In this document: positions 5,519 through 48,923 of the stretch, one piece after another | How positions within the stretch are numbered: the first letter of the stretch is position 1 | Layout: every line of letters begins with the position of its first letter | NCBI GenBank assembly: GCA_037137395.1 | Contig: JBAXKK010000003.1 | Coordinates: 541 to 64,540 of the forward strand | Source: Elusimicrobiota bacterium | Lineage (GTDB): Bacteria; Elusimicrobiota; Elusimicrobia; Elusimicrobiales; UBA9959 | Direction of reading: 5' to 3' | Length of the DNA stretch: 64,000 bases | The notes under the pieces: model-generated | Database searches by the model: none | The model's input: only the letters and a program-made list of their open reading frames with translations | What the model was told of the DNA's origin: nothing | Made by a program: the position numbers and the translations under genes

Positions 5519-5613
5519 AAGTAAGTTATAAGTTTTAAGTAGTAAGTGGTAAGCGGGTAAAGTTTTTAAAATTAATCCTTAAAACTTAATCCTTAACACT
5601 TACTTCTTGCCAC
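5519..5613. repeat. intercistronic imperfect inverted repeat (GTAAGT/TAAGG word family)
   Basis: aagtaagttataagttttaagtagtaagtggtaagcgggtaaag / tttttaaa / attaatccttaaaacttaatccttaacacttacttcttgccac. Lies between rpsH and rpsN. Confidence 0.65.
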
Positions 5614-10658: not shown

Positions 10659-10739
10659 GGGATTCAAGATTTAAGATTCCGGATTTAAGATTGCGGAACC
10701 GTTTTTAATCTTGAATCTTCAATCTTTAATCTTCAATCC
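10659..10739. repeat. intercistronic ~33-bp imperfect hairpin (AAGATT word family)
   Basis: Left arm is gggattcaagatttaagattccggatttaagatt. The reverse complement of the right arm is ggattgaagattaaagattgaagattcaagatt, matching at all but a few positions. Lies between rplB and rplW. Confidence 0.75.
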
Positions 10740-13195: not shown

Positions 13196-15493
13196 TCACC
13201 CTTTTTTACCTTTAAGAGCCCATTTCATTCGCTCGGAAAACGAGCTTTCCATAAGCCGATATTTCCCAAGCTCGGCTGAAACAGCGTCGATACGGGTCTG
13301 ATAGGCTTGCGCGGCCCCGGAAGCCTCTTCTCTTAAGGCAATTGCTCCCTGCTTCTCCGCCTCTATCTGGCGAGCCGAGTCCTGAAGCCGGAGTTCAAGC
13401 TCCTGTATCTGCTGCTTGATCATCATAAGTTCGGACTCCAGCCGCGCGCGGTTCCCGCTTTCGGTCTTAAAATCCCGCACGACCCCGGCAAGCTCCGCTT
13501 CGCGTGAAAACTTAGCGGCCAGCGTCGCATCTAATTGGGCCTTAACAGAGGAATGCTCGGCGCTGAGGCGTGTAAACTCTGCGCCGAAACGCGCACGATC
13601 GGCCTCCATAGCGGCAAAACGCCTTTCATAGTCAGCCCTCACGGTCAGCAGTGAATTTAATTGCGCTTCCAGGCGTTTATAATTCTCAGCCATGGACACG
13701 CTGGAGTCCGCGTATTCTTTCCGGACGCGAGCCAGCTTTTCTTCGAAGCCGCGAGCCTCTTCGGTCAGCCGCCCGACCTCCACCTCCAGCGTCATCTTGT
13801 TATCCTCCGCCTGAGTCCTGGCAGCCTTGAGCCGCACCAGCTCATAAGCGTACTCCTGCTCCAGCTCTCGCTTAACCCCGGCGCGAATGTCGTTAACGCC
13901 GGCTTCATATTTGGCGCGCATGTCCAGATTGATGTTTTCCAGATCAGCCGCGGACGAGGCCTTAACCCTGGCCAATTCGTCCTGATTTTTTTTGTTGCTC
14001 GCCAGCATCTCTTCCTGATGCTTTTTACTGCTCGCCAGCATCTCCTCCTGCTGCTTTTTGCCGGCAGCAAGCAGCTCCTCCTGATTTTTTTTACCGATAG
14101 CCAGCAGCTCTTCCTGATGACTGCGCTGCAGATCCGACAGCCGCTGAGCGTGTCCGGCCGCGAATTCGGCGGCGTAATCGTCTTTAAATTTCTGGATCTC
14201 CGCCTGATATTTTTTCATCAGGCCCTCTATTTCCGCCTGATTCGACGCGCTCATCGCCCCCATCTCGGATTTCAATTTCTTGACATCCTCAATGCCAGAC
14301 GCCATGGCCTGAGCCATCTGCATCTTCTCCATGCGCAGGGATTGCCGCTCCTTCTCCAGCACCGCGTTGATCGCCTGCACCCGGGATACAAAACCTTTGA
14401 TCCTGACCAGCTCCGACATGGCCCGTACCTTCTCTCCAGTGACATCGGCCACCGCCTTCTCTTTTTCCTGCAGGGCAAATTCGTAGCGTATCTGGAGTTT
14501 GCGAAGTTCCTCATCCTTTTCAGTGTTTTTGCGGTCCGAGATCGCGCCGATTTCGGACTGCAGGCCGCCGACCTCTTTGCGCATCTTGTCCATTTCAAAA
14601 CGGAACTTCTCATCAGCCAGCTTGCACTCGCTGCGCGCGCTTTCCTCGCGGGCGCGCAGACCGGCGTTTTCGGCCCTCATGTCCGAAAATTCCCTCTCGC
14701 GCTCAGGAATATTTTTGATATAAGACTCAATGGAAGCTTTCTCGCGGTCAATCTTGGCCACATCATCCCTGAGCTTGGAAATTTCCTTGGCCTGCATTTC
14801 TTTTTCCATGGCCGCGCGGCGGAATTCATCTTCGACCGCCCTCAACTTCTCGGTGCTGGATTTGAGAGATCTTACTTCATCCTCTTTCTGGGAAATAGTC
14901 TTCTGCCATTGGGCTTTTTCCTCAAGCCAGCGGCGCTCCATCTCCTGAAGCCGGTAAAGAAAATGGCCCTCAACGTCTTTGGACTGGGTCTCGCGCTCCT
15001 GGATCTGCCCCTTGAGCGTCTGCATCCAGGTCTCGCGCTCGGAGACCAGCCGTGTTTCCAGGTCCTTCACCTTAGATTTAAGCGTAAGGCGCTCTTCCTG
15101 CACTTCCTGCTCGCGCCGGTCGCGGCGCAGTTTATCCTGTATGTCTTTCAGCGAAGATTCAACTTTGGAGGAGAGCGCCTCATCCTGCTGGTTTTTTAAA
15201 GTGGCCAGCAGAGCTTTCTCTTTTTCTTGGGAAACGATCTTCTCCATCTCGGTTATTTTTTTCTCAAGCCTGTCCTTGTCCTCTTTCATTCTGGCAGACT
15301 CATCGGCCTGCGTGTTCCTCTGAAAATTCTGGGGCTGATTGGGCGCGGAAAAGTTCTGGGGCTGAGAAGAAGGGAAAGCGGACACTCCTCCCCCCTGCAG
15401 CTGAGGGAGCAGCGGAGAATAGTGATTAACGCCATCCGGAGGCGTCGGAGGAGAACTCATTTTTTCCTTCTGCTTATTATCTTTGTCTTCCAT
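13196..15493 (-). CDS. long coiled-coil protein (Pro/Gln-rich N-terminus, about 700 aa of heptad-rich E/K/R/L/Q sequence)
   Basis: Composition and heptad-like periodicity throughout; no TM segment or signal peptide. Start set at ATG 15493 (MEDKDNK) behind AAGGA; the track start is a GTG 42 nt upstream. Confidence 0.7.
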   Translation of the reverse strand: MEDKDNKQKEKMSSPPTPPDGVNHYSPLLPQLQGGGVSAFPSSQPQNFSAPNQPQNFQRNTQADESARMKEDKDRLEKKITEMEKIVSQEKEKALLATLKNQQDEALSSKVESSLKDIQDKLRRDRREQEVQEERLTLKSKVKDLETRLVSERETWMQTLKGQIQERETQSKDVEGHFLYRLQEMERRWLEEKAQWQKTISQKEDEVRSLKSSTEKLRAVEDEFRRAAMEKEMQAKEISKLRDDVAKIDREKASIESYIKNIPEREREFSDMRAENAGLRAREESARSECKLADEKFRFEMDKMRKEVGGLQSEIGAISDRKNTEKDEELRKLQIRYEFALQEKEKAVADVTGEKVRAMSELVRIKGFVSRVQAINAVLEKERQSLRMEKMQMAQAMASGIEDVKKLKSEMGAMSASNQAEIEGLMKKYQAEIQKFKDDYAAEFAAGHAQRLSDLQRSHQEELLAIGKKNQEELLAAGKKQQEEMLASSKKHQEEMLASNKKNQDELARVKASSAADLENINLDMRAKYEAGVNDIRAGVKRELEQEYAYELVRLKAARTQAEDNKMTLEVEVGRLTEEARGFEEKLARVRKEYADSSVSMAENYKRLEAQLNSLLTVRADYERRFAAMEADRARFGAEFTRLSAEHSSVKAQLDATLAAKFSREAELAGVVRDFKTESGNRARLESELMMIKQQIQELELRLQDSARQIEAEKQGAIALREEASGAAQAYQTRIDAVSAELGKYRLMESSFSERMKWALKGKKG
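13986..14120. repeat. four tandem 33-bp (11-codon) repeats inside the coiled-coil CDS
   Basis: Encodes KKNQEELLAAG / KKQQEEMLASS / KKHQEEMLASN / KKNQDELARV. The DNA units all end in ...cagcatctc(c/t)tcctg(a/c)tgc. Confidence 0.8.
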
Positions 15494-15615
15494 ATACTGT
15501 TCCTTAATATGCCCGGTCCGCGTTTTAATCTTCACAATATTTTAGAAGTTACTGATTTCCTTTTGATTAAGGAATTGTTAACAGGCTGTTTAACAGGGGC
15601 TGCTATAAGCTATAG

Positions 15616-15671
<56 letters not shown>

Positions 15672-15694
15672 ATGGGGACCATAGCCGAATTGTT

Positions 15695-15720
15695 ATAAAT
15701 AAAAAAGCCGCTTCGGCTTT
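15695..15720 (-). terminator. intrinsic terminator
   Basis: Minus-strand RNA reads AAAGCCG-AAG-CGGCUUU followed by UUUAUUU. Confidence 0.75.
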
Positions 15721-15893
15721 CTTCAGGGTTCACACCCGGAAGGCAACTGAAACGGCCAACCTGAATTGTCCCGTTAGGGGCGCACCGGACACTCCTAGCG
15801 CACCGCAACCGCCCCACACTACGCCTACGCGTTTCCGACTGACTCTGCCGCGCTCCTAACGGGACACCCACTGCACTACCCGCCGCACTTCTC
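15697..15893 (-). ncRNA. candidate stand-alone small RNA (~195 nt), class unknown
   Basis: Bracketed by a consensus promoter (15900-15927) and an intrinsic terminator. It contains a 16-bp stem (GUCCCGUUAGGAGCGC...GCGCCCCUAACGGGAC) enclosing ~65 nt, plus a second hairpin CUUCCGGGU-GUGA-ACCCUGAAG. It has no credible ORF. Confidence 0.6.
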
Positions 15894-15899
15894 CGTTAT

Positions 15900-15927
15900 A
15901 TTATAGCAGATTTACAAAAATTGTCAA
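15900..15927 (-). promoter_or_regulatory. consensus sigma70 promoter
   Basis: The minus strand reads TTGACA (15927-15922), a 16-nt spacer, then TATAAT (15905-15900). The -35 hexamer contains the TGA stop of the upstream CDS. Confidence 0.7.
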
Positions 15928-17096
15928 GGGTTGCCCCTTGCCTTGTCAAGCAGCGGTCCGGCGCCGACGAGAAAGCTCCGGGCTTTTGCGTATACGGTGT
16001 CGGTCATGAGCGCGGTTTCGCTGGCTGAAATCCACGCTTTCCTTAGCTCCTCCGCCTGGGCGCCCGTAAGCTCTACTTTAAAATTCGGCTCTACGCCCTT
16101 CCCCTCCAGGGCTGCGCCTGAAGGAGGAAACATTCTTGCCACGGTAATCCTGAGCCCCTTGCCGCCGGCCCCAAGTCTGAATGTTTTTTGCAGGGAGACT
16201 CCGCCCCGGGTAGTCTCGCCTATAACTTGCGCGCCGCGCAGTTCCCGCAGAGCCTGCGCGAAAACTTCAGCCGCCATCGCGGTCCCTGAATTAACAAGCA
16301 CAACCGACTGCAGGGCCGCGAAAGGCCCTGCACCATGAGCCTCAAAAAGACGGCGGTAGCCTTTATGCCTGGACTTTATCTCAAGCACCGGCCCCGCCTT
16401 GGCCGCCAAAGCCTCAAGCAGACCGGCAGCCTCATCCGGTACGCCGCCGGCCGAATCCCTGAGATCAAATATCACTTTTTTCGCCCCCAAACCGGACAAA
16501 GCCTCCAGCCCGGCGACAATCGTGGCTCCTGAGCCTGCGGAAAACATCCTTATCCTGATAAAAGCGGTAGCCGTGGCTGGCTCGTAAAAGCCGAAGATCG
16601 GCGGAGAATAAAAAATTTTCTTTTTAATATCCGCAACTATCACGCCGGACCCTTTAGGCGTGCGCCGCTCCACTTTCAGCCTGAACCCTTCGGCCGCGCG
16701 CGCCAAACCCAAAACCGCGTCCGCAGTGGCCGCAACACCGTTCACTTCAAGCACCCTGTCTCCGTCCCGCAAACCGGCTGCCATACCGGGAGATCCGCGA
16801 AACACCCTGATCAGGTAAAAAGCGCCGCCCCACTCACTTAGCAGCAGACCGGAGGATAAGCCCGCCGCTCCGGGCAATTCTTTTATTTTTTTCCTGGCCG
16901 CCACAACCTCGGCGTGACGGTCCAGAAGCTTAAGGCCATCCACGCCCCTGGAGCGCAACAAGTCCCGTATCCTCTGCGGGGAGTATTCCTCATAGCTGTG
17001 CGCCTCAAACACATTAATAATGCCCGGGCTCAGATCTTTATCGGCGCAAGCCGCGGCAAAAAGGAAAATCACAGGCAGAAAAATTTTCTTCATCAT
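15924..17096 (-). CDS. S41 (C-terminal processing) peptidase homolog with PDZ domain, predicted catalytically inactive
   Basis: Signal peptide; PDZ-like GSPGMAAGLRDGDRVLEVNG; S41 core DLRDSAGG...VLVNSGTAMAAEVFAQAL...GETTRGGVSLQ. Alignment to the bona fide Ctp at 49061-50356 shows Ser->Met and Lys->Gly at the catalytic dyad positions. Confidence 0.75.
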   Translation of the reverse strand: MMKKIFLPVIFLFAAACADKDLSPGIINVFEAHSYEEYSPQRIRDLLRSRGVDGLKLLDRHAEVVAARKKIKELPGAAGLSSGLLLSEWGGAFYLIRVFRGSPGMAAGLRDGDRVLEVNGVAATADAVLGLARAAEGFRLKVERRTPKGSGVIVADIKKKIFYSPPIFGFYEPATATAFIRIRMFSAGSGATIVAGLEALSGLGAKKVIFDLRDSAGGVPDEAAGLLEALAAKAGPVLEIKSRHKGYRRLFEAHGAGPFAALQSVVLVNSGTAMAAEVFAQALRELRGAQVIGETTRGGVSLQKTFRLGAGGKGLRITVARMFPPSGAALEGKGVEPNFKVELTGAQAEELRKAWISASETALMTDTVYAKARSFLVGAGPLLDKARGNP

Positions 17097-17132: not shown

Positions 17133-18443
17133 CTACGCCGGCAATGTGCCCGTGGTATTGGCGGGGAAATCCCCGACCGGCGCGCCGTCGTAAAGCCCGG
17201 CGCCGCAGGGATCATCCGGCAGGAACGGCCCGTACATGGGGCATGGCTGACCATTTGCAGAATCGGGAGGCAGACAGCAGCAGGCTGACTCGATCTTACA
17301 GCCGCATTCCGCCCCGTAACCTTCGGTATCGATATATTCCTCCTTCCCGATATCCTGCAAGGTCTGAGCGTCATCAGGGTTGGAAAAACTTTCAACATCG
17401 TCATTTCCCGGGCCAGCGGAAGGCTGCCCCGCATCGGCGGCAGGATTATCGCCCGTATTCCCGGATCCCGTGAACGGGCCCAGCGGGGTGAACAGCGCCT
17501 TAGCCAGGTCTCTGCTCCCTTTTTTCTCCTGATAGTCTTTATCTTCTTTCAGCGCTTCTTTGGTGCCTTCCTTATCGAGCTCCGGCTTGCCCACGCTGGA
17601 CACTCCGAGCGACTTGGCATCGGTGGCGTCCATATTCTGATCTCTGAGGAAGTTGGGAATGGAACCGGGATTCACGCGGTCCAGCTTGGCCTTCACCTTC
17701 TCATCGTACTCCAGAGAAAGCTGCGCATCGTGGTTGGCGTCAAAGGCCTTGGCTATCCAGCTTTTAGCCGAGTCCTGGGAGGCCAGCCGCGCCCCGTAAA
17801 GATTCGCTTTGAAAGCGCTTTTCAGCGCCTCCATCACGGACATCTTCGGCCCTTTTGCGAGACCGCCGCCTGGCGCGCCGTTTTTAGACTGCGCGGTCGC
17901 GGCCGAAACGCCGCCGCTCATTTCTTCCGGCCTAAGCGCCATCGCTTTTGAGGCCTGGCCGCCATTCATCTGGCCGAGATGTATCGCCCCGGCGTTAAGC
18001 CTGTAGGCGAGCCCGGAGCCCTGAGCCGGGGAACGCGACGCGGAACCGCCGCCGGAAGCAGAATTAAAGTTTCCGCCCCCGGCGCCGCCGGCTTTACCTG
18101 AGACAGGGAGGGCCGCGGCGGCGGAATTATCCATAAATTCTTTTTGAAGCGCAGGGTCAGCCTTAGCCAATTCCTCTTCCGAAGCAAAAAATCCTTCTTC
18201 CTTTTCAGTTTTGGCCGCGGAGCCTTCCCCGTAAGGCGCGCTATTGGCGCTAAGAGAATTATAGTTGCCGCCGCCCGCAAGCTTATTGGCGGCGTTTTTC
18301 ATGGTAAACCAGGCGACAAACCCGCCCGCAATAAGAAATGCCAGCACCAGCAAGGTGCTCAACCATTTATAATTCCTTATATTTTTTAAGCCGGGAAAAG
18401 AAGCCCAAAAACCGCCTCGTTCCTCATCCTCTTCGGAAGCCAT
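17133..18443 (-). CDS. membrane-anchored low-complexity protein with Cys-rich C-terminus
   Basis: Acidic N-terminus, one TM segment (LSTLLVLAFLIAGGFVAWF), a Gly/Ala/Ser-rich region, and C-terminal GAECGCKIESACCCLPPDSANGQPCPMYGPFLPDDPCG. I recognise no family. Confidence 0.55.
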   Translation of the reverse strand: MASEEDEERGGFWASFPGLKNIRNYKWLSTLLVLAFLIAGGFVAWFTMKNAANKLAGGGNYNSLSANSAPYGEGSAAKTEKEEGFFASEEELAKADPALQKEFMDNSAAAALPVSGKAGGAGGGNFNSASGGGSASRSPAQGSGLAYRLNAGAIHLGQMNGGQASKAMALRPEEMSGGVSAATAQSKNGAPGGGLAKGPKMSVMEALKSAFKANLYGARLASQDSAKSWIAKAFDANHDAQLSLEYDEKVKAKLDRVNPGSIPNFLRDQNMDATDAKSLGVSSVGKPELDKEGTKEALKEDKDYQEKKGSRDLAKALFTPLGPFTGSGNTGDNPAADAGQPSAGPGNDDVESFSNPDDAQTLQDIGKEEYIDTEGYGAECGCKIESACCCLPPDSANGQPCPMYGPFLPDDPCGAGLYDGAPVGDFPANTTGTLPA

Positions 18444-18545
18444 ATCCCCTCCGCCTTATCCCGGATTAAAAAAAATAATCTGAGTCTGGAGACTAATATG
18501 CATAGATATTATCCCCACGGCCCATTTTTTGGTTATCTCACTTAT

Positions 18546-18574
18546 GTTATAGCAGAGGAAACAACTAATTTCAA
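18546..18574 (-). promoter_or_regulatory. sigma70-type promoter
   Basis: The minus strand reads TTGAAA (18574-18569), a 17-nt spacer, then TATAAC (18551-18546). About 100 nt upstream of ATG 18443. Confidence 0.5.
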
Positions 18575-18640
18575 GGTCTAACCCACAAAAGGATGTGCGC
18601 GATCATTACAAGATATCATTTGGTTTACAGAGAAACCACG

Positions 18641-19243
18641 CTATTTGCTAAGGCCGGGCAGAACAAATTGTATCGGCCGGTCGCGGTTAGGAACATACTT
18701 GATCACTTGCAGCTGTTTTCCGCCGGTGCAGAGGTAATCGTAACCATTATTGCAGGCTTCGCCGTACGGGGCGGCGCATACCACCTGCCTGGGATACTTA
18801 CACAACATCCTAATCCCGGCCGGGTCGGTCTCAATAGTCAGGGTCACCACGTTCCAGACCTGGGTCCGCACGACTTCGAGCGTAAATGTGCGCAGATTAA
18901 GAAATTTTTTAACCGATGGCGTGTCAAACCCGACATAGCCTCTGACCTTGTCTTCGATATCCCTTCTAAGCCATGGATCGTCCCAATTGGCGGCGAACTC
19001 GGCGCTAAGATGGGATTCCAACTGCCAGCGGCGGGCGGCGTAATATGAACCAATCTCCATCTTCTGCACCAGAACCAGCAGTGCGAACATCTTGGCCGTC
19101 ATGAATACAACCAGCATGAAGATTGGGAACAGCAGGACGACTTCGGTCATGGCTTGTCCTTTCCGGCTCCGCCGGAAAGGACGCCATAGGCCATAGGCCG
19201 TATGCTTTAAGCTTGTTATTATTTTGGATAATTTCATCTGCAT
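18641..19243 (-). CDS. TadE-like pseudopilin
   Basis: N-terminal RKGQAMTEVVLLFPIFMLVVF (TadE/TadG-type hydrophobic N-terminus); ATG preceded by AAGGTG. The leader MQMKLSKIITSLKHTAYGLW is shared with the flp gene at 20846. Confidence 0.7.
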   Translation of the reverse strand: MQMKLSKIITSLKHTAYGLWRPFRRSRKGQAMTEVVLLFPIFMLVVFMTAKMFALLVLVQKMEIGSYYAARRWQLESHLSAEFAANWDDPWLRRDIEDKVRGYVGFDTPSVKKFLNLRTFTLEVVRTQVWNVVTLTIETDPAGIRMLCKYPRQVVCAAPYGEACNNGYDYLCTGGKQLQVIKYVPNRDRPIQFVLPGLSK

Positions 19244-19289
19244 TTCAGCACCTTATCTGCATATGGCTTATGGCCTAAAGCATATGGCA
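19183..19289. repeat. imperfect inverted repeat (GCCATAGGC / GCATATGGC word family) bracketing a start codon
   Basis: Left arm is gccataggccataggccgtatgctttaagc; right arm is gcatatggcttatggcctaaagcatatggc. A stem of ~12 bp is possible (gtatgctttaag with cctaaagcatat). The SD and ATG 19243 lie between the arms. Confidence 0.6.
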
Positions 19290-19293
19290 TTGT

Positions 19294-20553
19294 TCACGGA
19301 TACAGCCTGGTTTGATACTTAGGCGTGGGATTGGGCCATACGCAGTTATTGCCGGAACTCAACTGCGAACACTGAGTGGCCACAAGGGCGTGCACGCAGG
19401 GACGCCCGGTCTCCTGACAGGCCACCATGCTGTTGAAATTAACGCCGAAATAATTAGAGGACACATCCCAGCCCTGGTAAACATGATAGCCGGGACGCCC
19501 CACGGTCTTCAGAGCGTCGTCGCTGAAAGTGGCAATCTGGAACAATCCTTTGCCCGGCATCCGTATCGGAGGATCTACCCACCCCAGAAAATACGGCGGC
19601 AAGCCGGACTTAGGCACTTTGGCGTAGAACATTATTTCTTTCAGGTACCAGATGAACATGTTCGAACCGCGCACAAACCTGTTGTTCCTGAACCCGCCCG
19701 GACTCCTGACGCCGTCTTCGCCGCAGGTATTGGGATTATCCACGCATTCCTGGGTGTTGGCGTTCAGATAATAAGACTTCCTGAAAAAATTAAAATTCTC
19801 GGTCAGGCGTTCAAACACCGTCATCTGGGATTCCTCCACCGCGCCCAGCATGGTATAGACCCGGGAGTAAAATTGATAAATAGATGCGGCCGGGTCCCAG
19901 AATATATATGTATAAATGCCCTGATCACGGGTTATCAGTTTGAGCAAATTATCCATCGCCGGAGGATTTTTATTTATGCCGCCCCTGGGCGGATCCTTAT
20001 ACGCGATCTCCCATTTGGACTCGGCGTCCAGGGGCGTGGCTTCCGCACCCGAAACATCGTTTTTATATTTAGGTATAGCCCCCGCGTCGTAAAGCATATC
20101 GTAAACACAGACCGAGCCGCTCTCATCTGTCTTTTTCAGACAGTTGCCTCCGCTGCCGCCGCAGCCACCCACGCACTCATACGCTTCCTTGAAGATCCTG
20201 TACGGGAACGCGCCGTTGACATAAGCCGTACGGTTGAGGATATTGGTGTAGTCTCCCATCTGAATGAAGGCGGCGGAATCCACCGCGAACTGCTGGCGTA
20301 TTTTTTCTCTGGACAACTTCGTGGTCTCAAATATAAGGTAGATAAAAAGCATGAGAGACGGGATTATCAGGACAGAAGGAATCAGTATCTGTCCTTTCCG
20401 AACGCGCGGAGTCAGGTCAGGGATGTTAAGGCGGAGGGCAGATATAATACCCAATAGAAAATGAAGGAATGCAAAAAAAGAGTTGCATATCCTATTCTCG
20501 TTAATATTTTCAACCCCGCCTCTGAATGCCATATTTATCTTCTCTTTTTTCAC
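19294..20553 (-). CDS. TadG-like large pseudopilin / pilus-associated protein (Cys-rich)
   Basis: N-terminal VRKGQILIPSVLIIPSLMLFIYLIF resembles the TadE/TadG class; about 340 aa extracytoplasmic with many Cys pairs. The start is uncertain (GTG 20553 or ATG 20532). Confidence 0.55.
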   Translation of the reverse strand: MKKEKINMAFRGGVENINENRICNSFFAFLHFLLGIISALRLNIPDLTPRVRKGQILIPSVLIIPSLMLFIYLIFETTKLSREKIRQQFAVDSAAFIQMGDYTNILNRTAYVNGAFPYRIFKEAYECVGGCGGSGGNCLKKTDESGSVCVYDMLYDAGAIPKYKNDVSGAEATPLDAESKWEIAYKDPPRGGINKNPPAMDNLLKLITRDQGIYTYIFWDPAASIYQFYSRVYTMLGAVEESQMTVFERLTENFNFFRKSYYLNANTQECVDNPNTCGEDGVRSPGGFRNNRFVRGSNMFIWYLKEIMFYAKVPKSGLPPYFLGWVDPPIRMPGKGLFQIATFSDDALKTVGRPGYHVYQGWDVSSNYFGVNFNSMVACQETGRPCVHALVATQCSQLSSGNNCVWPNPTPKYQTRLYP

Positions 20554-20573: not shown

Positions 20574-20846
20574 TTAAGTGGGCTTGCCGGCGCCCATTAC
20601 CATGCCAATCAAACTAAACATCCCGCCCAGAATTTTTTTATGAAACAGTATCCCGATTATCAGCGTCATTCCGACAACCACGGCCAGCATAAGGAGATAC
20701 TCCACCGTGGTCTGCCCCTTCCGGAATATACGGGGAGGGCGCGCGAAACCACACGCAGCAATACAAGTTAAGCCATAGGCCATAGGCCATAGGCCATAGA
20801 CATAATGCTTTAAGCTTTTTACTGTTTCGGATAATTTAATCTGCAT
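20574..20846 (-). CDS. flp: Flp-family prepilin (third copy)
   Basis: G/XXXXEY processing motif RKGQTTVEYLLMLAVVVG. The long leader starts at ATG 20846 (SD AAGG); an alternative in-frame ATG lies inside the heptamer repeat. Confidence 0.75.
   Translation of the reverse strand: MQIKLSETVKSLKHYVYGLWPMAYGLTCIAACGFARPPRIFRKGQTTVEYLLMLAVVVGMTLIIGILFHKKILGGMFSLIGMVMGAGKPT
20772..20799. repeat. heptanucleotide repeat (GCCATAG)x4 inside the flp leader coding region
   Basis: The coding strand reads CTATGGC x4 and encodes YGLWPMAYG. Each unit carries an ATG, so ATGs occur in all three frames. Confidence 0.9.
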
Positions 20847-47764: not shown

Positions 47765-47850
47765 AGAAGGATTAAGCGATAAGGATTAAGTTTAAAAAAC
47801 CTGCTTCTTACCCCATTGCCACTTATTCCTTACCACTTAATCCTTACTAC
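47765..47850. repeat. imperfect inverted repeat, AAGGATTAAG family
   Basis: agaaggattaagcgataaggattaag tttaaaaaac ctgcttcttaccccattgccacttattccttaccacttaatccttactac. The right end abuts the tsaD stop. Confidence 0.7.
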
Positions 47851-48923
47851 TTACCCGGCCAGGAAACTACGGCCAGGTCGGGGGCTATGTCCAGCGACCC
47901 GCCGGTAGCCCGCGCAGCAAGCCGCCTGGCGCCGCAAAGAGCCACCATGGCGGCGTTATCTGTGCAGTAGCGTTTTTCAGCAAATTTAATTTCGTATCCG
48001 GATTTAGCGGAGAGTTCCATGAACTTCCGCCTTAAACGCAGATTGGCGGCGACGCCCCCCCCGACTATCACGCTTTTTATTCCTGTATCAGCGCAAGCCC
48101 TGGCAGTTTTATGGACCAGCGTGTCAGCGACCGCCTCTTCAAAAGCAAGACATATCCTCCCCCGGTCCGCAGGGGACGGGCGCAGTCTTTTTTCATAAAA
48201 ATCGTTGCCCAGCATATCTCTGAGTTTATAAGCCACGGCCGTCTTCAGACCGCTGAAAGAAAAATCAAAACTGTCTTCCATATATGGTCTGGGGAAGTCA
48301 AAGCCGGACGGCCCGGACTTTAAAGCTTCCTTCTCCACCGAAGGCCCGCCGGGATACTCAAGCCCCAGCAGTTTAGCCACCTTGTCAAAAGCTTCTCCGG
48401 CGGCATCGTCCCTTGTGCGCCCCATTACCTTATACCTGCCGTATCCTTCGGCTGTCCAGAGTTCGGTGTGCCCGCCTGAGACGATCAGGCCTATGCATGG
48501 GAATTTGATGCGCCTGGACGCGGTCATGCCCTCATATTCATAGGCCAGAAAATGCCCTTCCAAATGGTTCACTCCCAGAAGTTTGGCGCCTAGAAGCCTG
48601 GCCGCGGCCTCTGCCGCCACTCTGGACACCAGAAGCGCGCCCGGCAGTCCGGGGCCTCTGGAGAACGCCACAGCGTCTATCTTAGGTCCTCTAAGTCGGC
48701 CCCCGACAAAGAAAGGTCTGCGGTAACCGGCCTTCGAAAGAGCGGCGCCTAGCACCCAGGAAATCTTCTCAAGGTGCGCACGGCTGGCCAGCTCCGGAAC
48801 AACGCCGCTGTATTTTCTGTGAAGATCTATCTGGGAGAAAATAATATTTGAGAGCAGGCGGCCGTCATCCAGCAGACAGACCGAGGTCTCATCGCACGTG
48901 GTCTCAAACGCCAGTATTCTCAT
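47847..48923 (-). CDS. tsaD: tRNA N6-adenosine threonylcarbamoyltransferase
   Basis: MRILAFETTCDETSVCLL...SGVVPELASRAH...GVNHLEGH...VSGGHTEL...GGVAAN. Confidence 0.93.
   Translation of the reverse strand: MRILAFETTCDETSVCLLDDGRLLSNIIFSQIDLHRKYSGVVPELASRAHLEKISWVLGAALSKAGYRRPFFVGGRLRGPKIDAVAFSRGPGLPGALLVSRVAAEAAARLLGAKLLGVNHLEGHFLAYEYEGMTASRRIKFPCIGLIVSGGHTELWTAEGYGRYKVMGRTRDDAAGEAFDKVAKLLGLEYPGGPSVEKEALKSGPSGFDFPRPYMEDSFDFSFSGLKTAVAYKLRDMLGNDFYEKRLRPSPADRGRICLAFEEAVADTLVHKTARACADTGIKSVIVGGGVAANLRLRRKFMELSAKSGYEIKFAEKRYCTDNAAMVALCGARRLAARATGGSLDIAPDLAVVSWPGK

Follow-up and report, generated by a model that had tools for sequence, protein, structure and literature searches.

The locus and its neighbouring genes

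The window, the whole 64,000-nucleotide stretch of DNA that was analyzed, belongs to an Elusimicrobiales genome and carries a candidate small RNA (sRNA) gene between a peptidase gene and the gene for a large coiled-coil protein, and all elements of the sRNA locus lie on the minus strand (Table 1). The S41/PDZ C-terminal processing peptidase is encoded by the last gene of a block that specifies a 419-aa protein, a TadE-like 200-aa protein, a 436-aa protein and the peptidase, and this upstream block was kept in nearly all of the 26 Elusimicrobiales loci. No Pfam match was found for the three non-peptidase proteins of the block (window 17133-20553, minus strand); the 436-aa protein is a Cys-rich membrane protein. 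The block may be a pilus- or secretion-related operon.

On the other side of the RNA, the coiled-coil gene lies directly upstream of an S10-type ribosomal-protein operon. In Pfam its product weakly resembled intermediate-filament proteins (E = 3e-4), and the gene contains an internal 33-nt (11-aa) tandem repeat at 13997-14119. The intervening spacer holds a tandem heptamer, the copy number of which differs between the window and the related loci L003 and L038, and other heptamers were seen in relatives (AAGATTC in L024, CCACTGN in L041). Further perfect 7- or 14-nt tandem repeats, such as (GCCATAG)x4, were located in intergenic DNA of the window at 20772-20799, 10707-10738, 5566-5602 and 47819-47853. 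Tandem heptamers may be a genome-wide feature of the lineage.

Table 1. Coordinates of the sRNA locus and its flanking features in the window.
Feature	Position	Strand	Remarks
S41/PDZ C-terminal processing peptidase gene, 390 aa	15924..17096	-	anchors the RNA locus across Elusimicrobiales
Upstream region: second TTGACA (15949-15944) and hairpin CAAGGGGCAACCCUUG (15940-15925)	15925..15949	-	
-35 hexamer TTGACA	15927-15922	-	conserved as CTTGACAA in 31 distinct units
Extended -10 TGCTATAAT	15900..15908	-	inside conserved block TCTGCTATAATAT; TG at 15908-15907
-10 hexamer TATAAT	15905-15900	-	promoter scan
5' single-stranded tail, purine- and G/U-rich	15866..15894	-	has GUGCGG, GUAGUG, GCAGUG
P1 helix, 5' strand GUCCCGUUAGGAGCGCG	15849..15865	-	fold and covariation over nine stem types
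Variable G/U-rich domain, 64 nt, closed by P1	15785..15848	-	
P1 helix, 3' strand UGCGCCCCUAACGGGAC	15768..15784	-	fold and covariation
Long intrinsic-terminator hairpin GGCCGUUUCAGUUGCCUUCC...GAAGAAAGCCGAAGCGGCU, 52 nt	15706..15757	-	homologous to the post-aptamer terminator of relatives
U-tract UUUUUAUUU / UUUUUUAUUU	15697..15705	-	predicted 3' end of the transcript
Tandem heptamer (GCCGTAA)x8, between terminator and next gene	15616..15671	.	spacer poorly conserved
Coiled-coil protein gene, 779 aa	13196..15535	-	likely true start ATG at 15493

Promoter, transcript ends and coding potential

A previous sequence-only reading of this DNA had proposed a TTGACA-16-TATAAT promoter, with the TGA stop codon of the preceding gene inside its -35 box, followed about 195 nt later by an intrinsic terminator. 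Both elements were confirmed. The promoter scan found a sigma-70 type site with a 16-nt spacer that matched the consensus at 12 of 12 positions (15927-15900), and the -35 box encloses the stop codon (15926-15924) of the 390-aa peptidase ORF. The region contained 3 promoter-like sites, compared with 0.5 +/- 0.7 in shuffled sequences. The block CTTGACAA-N10-TCTGCTATAATAT was matched exactly at 15928-15898, the sole such site in the window, with 0 expected by chance, and neither a second promoter of this type nor a second terminator module was found elsewhere in the 64 kb. With the start predicted near 15894 from the position of the -10 box and the end in the U-tract at 15705-15697, the transcript would be ~190-198 nt long.

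The hairpin CAAGGGGCAACCCUUG overlaps the peptidase stop codon as well as the -35 box. A perfect palindrome, TTGACAnGTCAA, usually precedes the promoter in relatives, at a distance of about 10 nt from the -35 box (for example, L020 5085-5100), and the window has a degenerate copy of it. The palindrome or hairpin may serve as an operator or may form the 3' hairpin of the mRNA for the peptidase.

The same reading saw no plausible ORF in the transcript, and none was found. The lone ORF across the region in the ORF listing (93 aa, 15590..15871, minus strand) is mechanical; it extends across both the terminator and the heptamers, and indels shift its frame in relatives, so the sRNA region was considered non-coding. 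Coding potential was rejected on the further ground that a 10-aa GUG ORF, like the 93-aa ORF, is not kept in frame among the relatives.

Predicted fold of the RNA

The full-length sRNA folded with an energy of -84.4 kcal/mol (z = -2.8 relative to dinucleotide shuffles) into an unpaired 5' tail, a long helix, P1, at the base of a domain of 64 nt, and another long hairpin that immediately precedes the U-tract. P1 has 16 pairs and one A.C mismatch over 17 positions, in good agreement with the 16-bp stem and ~65-nt domain that had been described from the letters alone. Within the enclosed domain are a 10-nt bulge, GCAGAGUCAG, a helix designated P1b, in which UCGGA (15838-15834) pairs with UCCGG (15789-15785), and an inner hairpin.

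The remainder of the molecule was redrawn. The unpaired flanks of 22 and 25 nt that had been assigned to it were replaced, once the long hairpin was taken into account, by a 5' tail of ~29 nt and a linker of ~10 nt before the terminator hairpin. The supposedly separate hairpin with a GUGA loop (CGGGU-GUGA-ACCCUG, 15738-15724) proved to be the tip of the single terminator hairpin that extends from 15757 to 15706. The terminator itself is real, but the GCCG-AAG-CGGC hairpin that had been taken for the whole of it is only the base of this conserved, covarying structure. A terminator pattern search of the window located GGCCGTTTYNGYTGYCTTCGG at 15757-15737 with one mismatch.

Comparison with known RNA families

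Nowhere in the 64 kb of the window did an Rfam 15 family match at its gathering score. When positions 15500-16100 were scanned permissively (E <= 10), there was likewise no 6S, 6S-Flavo, SRP, tmRNA or RNase P RNA, and the matches were all at the level of chance. The chance-level matches from the permissive scans of the locus and of one motif-rich relative were IMES-2 (19 bits, where the cut-off is 55), WT1-AS_3 and P4. On these scans 6S, SRP, tmRNA, RNase P and the known riboswitches were ruled out for the window RNA.

It had been suggested that the size and layout of the transcript are compatible with 6S RNA and that a segment of it recalls helix 8 of SRP RNA. Neither resemblance held. The 5' tail was unpaired in the minimum-energy (MFE), centroid and consensus folds, and P1 and the terminator formed two independent hairpin domains, so that the closing stem and the two-sided central bubble of the 6S rod are both missing. 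The segment likened to SRP helix 8, GUCAGUCGGAAAC, consists of the bulge and the 5-bp P1b, not of a helix 8 with its GNAR tetraloop and conserved symmetric and asymmetric loops, and is kept only in the lineage of the window, and SRP covariance models found no match in the window or in the permissive scan of the locus.

Relatives and the composite riboswitch RNA

Homologues of the peptidase came nearly all from metagenome-assembled genomes of Elusimicrobia/Elusimicrobiales. A scan of one genome per species provided 26 Elusimicrobia loci (L001-L026), and searching metagenomes for the conserved P1 3' strand added 11 more (L031-L041), among which L034 is the same as L003 and L036 the same as L001. 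A blastn search with the window RNA gave 93% identity with L003 and 77% with L001, as well as shorter matches at the same position in many other loci. No match to the RNA was found in viral contigs and plasmid collections, and an origin from a mobile element was discarded on that account.

The promoter block was common to 31 distinct units from 41 related loci. In 26 of the 31 it is followed by an element that we designate module 1, which comprises a G/U-rich tail, the long-range helix P1 of 15-17 bp and the G/U-rich variable domain that P1 encloses. The order in most relatives was promoter, module 1, c-di-GMP-I aptamer, variable hairpin, long terminator hairpin and U-tract, which makes the composite RNA of these fused forms 400-470 nt long. 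Rfam identified the aptamer with 15 matches of 52-60 bits (gathering score 35) in 13 of the 15 loci scanned, and in 11 of the 15 it lay directly 3' of module 1. The terminator consensus in relatives is GGCCGUUUYnGCUGUCUUCGG...CGAAGAGAGCnGAARCGGYC, followed by the U-tract. The window, in contrast, has no c-di-GMP-I aptamer in its 64 kb, either by Rfam or by a search for the aptamer-start pattern of the relatives (0 matches). Its RNA is nevertheless tied to the c-di-GMP-I platform by the terminator, which aligns and covaries with the post-aptamer terminators of the relatives.

Several variations on this layout were observed, among them L008 (5458-5700 and 8798-9000), L016 (8046-8170) and L032. 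Some genomes have a pair of units that are alike in promoter and aptamer, in some units a short G/U-rich leader replaces the full module 1, and in L032 module 1 and the aptamer are separated by an additional ~170 nt.

Downstream of the RNA unit the relatives encode a HEAT-repeat protein and a protein of >780 aa without a Pfam match; both genes are absent from the 64-kb window. Each has an AT-rich region of its own that resembles a promoter. Between the RNA terminator and the HEAT-repeat gene, L020 (5640-5740), L023 (5610-5700), L039 and L017/L035 share a promoter-like AT-rich block, TTTGCGAAACAATTAATTTATATTATAATGG, and after it, before the HEAT-repeat gene, comes the hairpin UGCUUUGCCGGG...CCCGGCAAGGC, which is also conserved and may represent a further cis-regulatory RNA.

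The aptamers of the relatives (L001-L040; for example, L026 5366-5444) have A rather than G just 5' of the conserved GCAAA in 21 of 22 distinct sequences. This residue is at position 11 of the Rfam model, which we take to be the equivalent of G20 in the Vc2 riboswitch. An A at G20 marks GEMM-Ib riboswitches that sense cGAMP or are bispecific (PMC6140456). From the identity of this one base, the aptamers of the relatives may sense 3'3'-cGAMP.

No clear anti-terminator was found in the fused relatives, where the terminator formed in every minimum-energy fold; the sole possible candidate was a 7-nt complementarity, CCGAAGA/UCUUCGG, seen by eye.

Covariation and repeat composition

A helix equivalent to P1 was found in 26 of 26 module-1 units. 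Its nine sequence variants fall into four main types, GUCCCGUUAGGAGCGCG, which is that of the window, G(U/C)CCCGUUAGAGGCGCG, GCCUCGCCCAUCUGG and G(U/C)CCCGCCCUUUUGG. Since a MAFFT alignment of the isolated P1 stems opened gaps, pairing was instead counted without gaps, position by position, from the common G(U/C)C(C/U)CG start. The P1 positions were paired in 94% of cases, compared with 44-50% in shifted registers, a percentage that is partly built in because each sequence had been searched for its best stem, and compensatory double changes were present at 10 of the 17 positions. The case for P1 rests on its constant position relative to the promoter and aptamer and on the improbability of each stem of 15-17 bp. 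The terminator hairpin also covaried, with compensatory changes in 5 of the 18 consensus pairs in an alignment of 20 sequences.

The window RNA has the promoter and the helix of the family. Its promoter block is the exact one, and its helix, designated type A1 and identical in L003, L038, L001, L037 and L041, begins with G(U/C)C(C/U)CG and lies within the family range of 15-17 bp.

Outside P1 the module-1 RNAs consist of 46% G, 22% U, 14% A and 17% C. The motif GC(G/A)GU was present in 202 copies in 3,415 nt, compared with 16 +/- 4 in shuffled sequences, and the copies were spaced mostly at 5 or 6 nt, with more peaks at 10-11, 16 and 21 nt. The length was 59-116 nt for the enclosed domain and 19-102 nt for the tail. 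The RNA of the window, with 48% G and 18% U, is at the short, motif-poor end of the family; it has 3 strict GC(G/A)GU copies, compared with 7-18 in most relatives, and contains the motif less often than any other. Clusters of GC(G/A)GU or its complement, which might represent other copies or possible targets, were not found in the 64-kb window.

A description of the module-1 element was not found in the literature. Module 1 is a new RNA family that is not in Rfam and has so far been seen only in the Elusimicrobiales.

The stand-alone form and its conservation

In six sequences (the window, L003, L038, L041, L001 and L037) the terminator comes immediately after module 1, so that the sRNA proposed from the window alone is found as an independent unit in each. 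The consensus of this stand-alone clade adds the 5-bp P1b (UCGGA/UCCGG), which follows a one-sided bulge of 10-15 nt, AGAGUCAG, and an inner hairpin with covarying pairs, and the A.C mismatch in P1 is invariant across the clade. L001 and L037 have one unit consisting of promoter, module 1 and terminator and then a second unit consisting of promoter, aptamer and terminator. Since the two halves are carried as separate units in these loci, module 1 and the aptamer need not share one transcript. The fused form is probably ancestral because it is found in all of the other lineages. As judged from these arrangements, the composite RNA is split in the clade of the window, and the stand-alone form is derived but maintained.

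Comparison of the window with L003 indicated that the RNA is constrained. The RNA was 92.6% identical and the promoter 89%, while the spacer just past the terminator was 61% identical and the four-fold degenerate sites of the flanking genes were 79% and 72% identical. The difference between ~93% for the RNA and 72-79% for the four-fold sites indicates purifying selection on the sRNA. Moreover, substitutions in the terminator tip are compensated within the stand-alone clade, as in the change from U-A to C-G in L003.

Discussion

The window RNA is an unusual, aptamer-less, split-off variant of a riboswitch-associated ncRNA. As to its function, we regard it as reasonably probable, though not strongly so, that the locus encodes an autonomous, unconditionally terminated structured ncRNA of ~195 nt that represents a new family and probably serves as a trans-acting binding platform. 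The near-consensus sigma-70 promoter would drive the tail, P1 with the variable domain, the linker and the terminator hairpin, and the sRNA would be made and terminated regardless of ligand. The exposed G/U-rich repeats of the GC(G/A)GU type and the conserved bulge AGAGUCAG would be the binding surfaces, P1 would be a structural clamp that holds the domain, and the terminator hairpin would stabilise the 3' end. We infer that the sRNA is transcribed and that it acts in trans, as a decoy or scaffold to which a protein or a C/A-rich RNA binds. The repeat-platform idea fits the copy in the window least because that copy has only 3 strict GC(G/A)GU motifs.

The succession of promoter, structured RNA, terminator and gene is also typical of attenuators, so the RNA could instead be a cis-acting leader whose terminator, derived from one that is linked to a riboswitch, controls read-through into the coiled-coil gene and the S10 ribosomal-protein operon. 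The coiled-coil gene indeed follows the RNA in the window, L003, L038 and L041. Several observations make this explanation unlikely, 1) the window RNA has neither an aptamer nor a visible anti-terminator, 2) the spacer to the gene is variable in length (165-470 nt) and only 61-75% identical, 3) the coiled-coil gene has its own conserved upstream block, AAACAGCCTGTTAACAATTCCTTAA..., 4) in L001 and L037 a second promoter, and not the coiled-coil gene, comes after the RNA and 5) the hairpin of ~20 bp with its U-tract looks like a strong, unconditional terminator.

RNase III stems flank pre-rRNAs, and P1 together with P1b (~22 bp) might similarly be a processing stalk, an RNase III substrate from which an active G/U-rich loop RNA of ~60 nt would be released; in the fused relatives, cleavage would also separate the loop RNA from the riboswitch part. 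An almost perfect helix of 15-17 bp that always encloses a variable domain of 59-116 nt, and whose sequence changes freely while the pairing is kept, is what such a stalk would look like. However, the invariant A.C mismatch of the stand-alone clade and the bulge are left unexplained, and processing would be a variant of the binding-platform explanation rather than a true alternative to it. We consider that it is improbable.

It is more doubtful still that the RNA is a decaying, functionless remnant of a rearrangement in which the aptamer and the downstream operon were deleted. The absence of the aptamer, the HEAT-repeat gene and the large-protein gene that follow the unit in relatives, and the scarcity of repeat motifs in the window copy, are what decay would produce. 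On the other hand, the promoter is still a perfect consensus, the RNA is conserved well beyond the four-fold sites, the substitutions in the terminator tip are compensated, and six diverged sequences have retained the split form, with the two halves still present as separate units in two of them.

Finally, a divergent 6S RNA, that is, an RNA polymerase-binding mimic of the open promoter, or another housekeeping RNA is extremely unlikely, for although the length of ~195 nt, the stand-alone gene with its strong promoter and terminator, and the large internal loops resemble 6S RNA (RF00013), no covariance model of such an RNA matched even at E <= 10 in 15500-16100, the ends are unpaired with no two-sided central bubble, and in relatives the module is the 5' part of a riboswitch RNA of variable length and is absent from some units, neither of which is expected of 6S. 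The sRNA locus should consequently not be annotated with a 6S or SRP label.

Other candidates were set aside more briefly. Strings resembling GGCGGUAG occur, but recruitment of the ops/RfaH kind is a poor fit for a transcript with a strong terminator at its end. The enclosed domain varies too much, both in length and in sequence, to be a second ligand-binding aptamer. G-quadruplex, retron, DRT and omega-RNA assignments were rejected since no reverse transcriptase or nuclease gene is adjacent.

The trans-acting platform that we favor has partial parallels among known RNAs. The closest is the c-di-GMP-I (GEMM-I, RF01051) riboswitch, in that relatives have the promoter, module 1 and terminator of the window arranged around this aptamer; module 1, however, is not part of any described riboswitch, and the window RNA, which has no aptamer, cannot sense the ligand. 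To our knowledge, composite ncRNAs that join an aptamer to a second functional module are rare, the known examples being EutX/Rli55 and merRNA.

EutX and Rli55 are riboswitch-controlled sRNAs that sequester a protein, and CsrB/RsmZ and the TRAP-binding trp leader are sponge or wrap-around RNAs with repeated motifs. The relatives resemble EutX/Rli55 in that one ncRNA combines a ligand-sensing aptamer with a second RNA module, but module 1 lies 5' of the aptamer, not 3'. The regular spacing of 5-6 nt is the same as the period of the TRAP triplet repeats and recalls, only as an analogy, RNAs that wrap ring-shaped proteins, such as the TRAP-binding leader. The motif itself is GC(G/A)GU, not the GGA or (G/U)AG of CsrB/RsmZ and TRAP. 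The window copy differs from these systems in having few repeats. A more specific proposal, that module 1 is a wrap-around or sponge RNA whose GC(G/A)GU repeats would bind an oligomeric RNA-binding protein, that the aptamer to which it is fused in most Elusimicrobiales may respond to 3'3'-cGAMP, that the ancestral form was a second-messenger-gated protein-sequestering RNA and that the window RNA is its ligand-independent split-off form, is speculative and would have to be called improbable at present. If true, a second-messenger-gated protein-sequestering RNA would be a class not yet described.

The merRNA of Bdellovibrio bacteriovorus is a massively expressed 445-nt ncRNA that contains a c-di-GMP riboswitch and has no regulated downstream gene (PMC3627812). 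The fused relatives are likewise non-coding, and each unit of 400-470 nt combines a very strong promoter with an aptamer in its interior and a terminator of its own, a comparison that is one of layout and claims no sequence relation. Because the terminator forms in every MFE fold and there is no clear anti-terminator, the fused relatives may behave like merRNA and, as it does, may differ in action from classical gene-proximal riboswitches. The stand-alone RNA of the window has no aptamer inside it, and the ligand-reservoir role proposed for merRNA therefore cannot apply to it.

Module 1 is a conserved, covarying RNA domain outside Rfam in a poorly studied, largely uncultured phylum, and it is physically linked to cyclic-dinucleotide riboswitches. 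The natural occurrence of fused, split and aptamer-less versions offers a ready comparison for the role of the extra module, and the family allows one to ask whether riboswitch RNAs can be stand-alone regulators.
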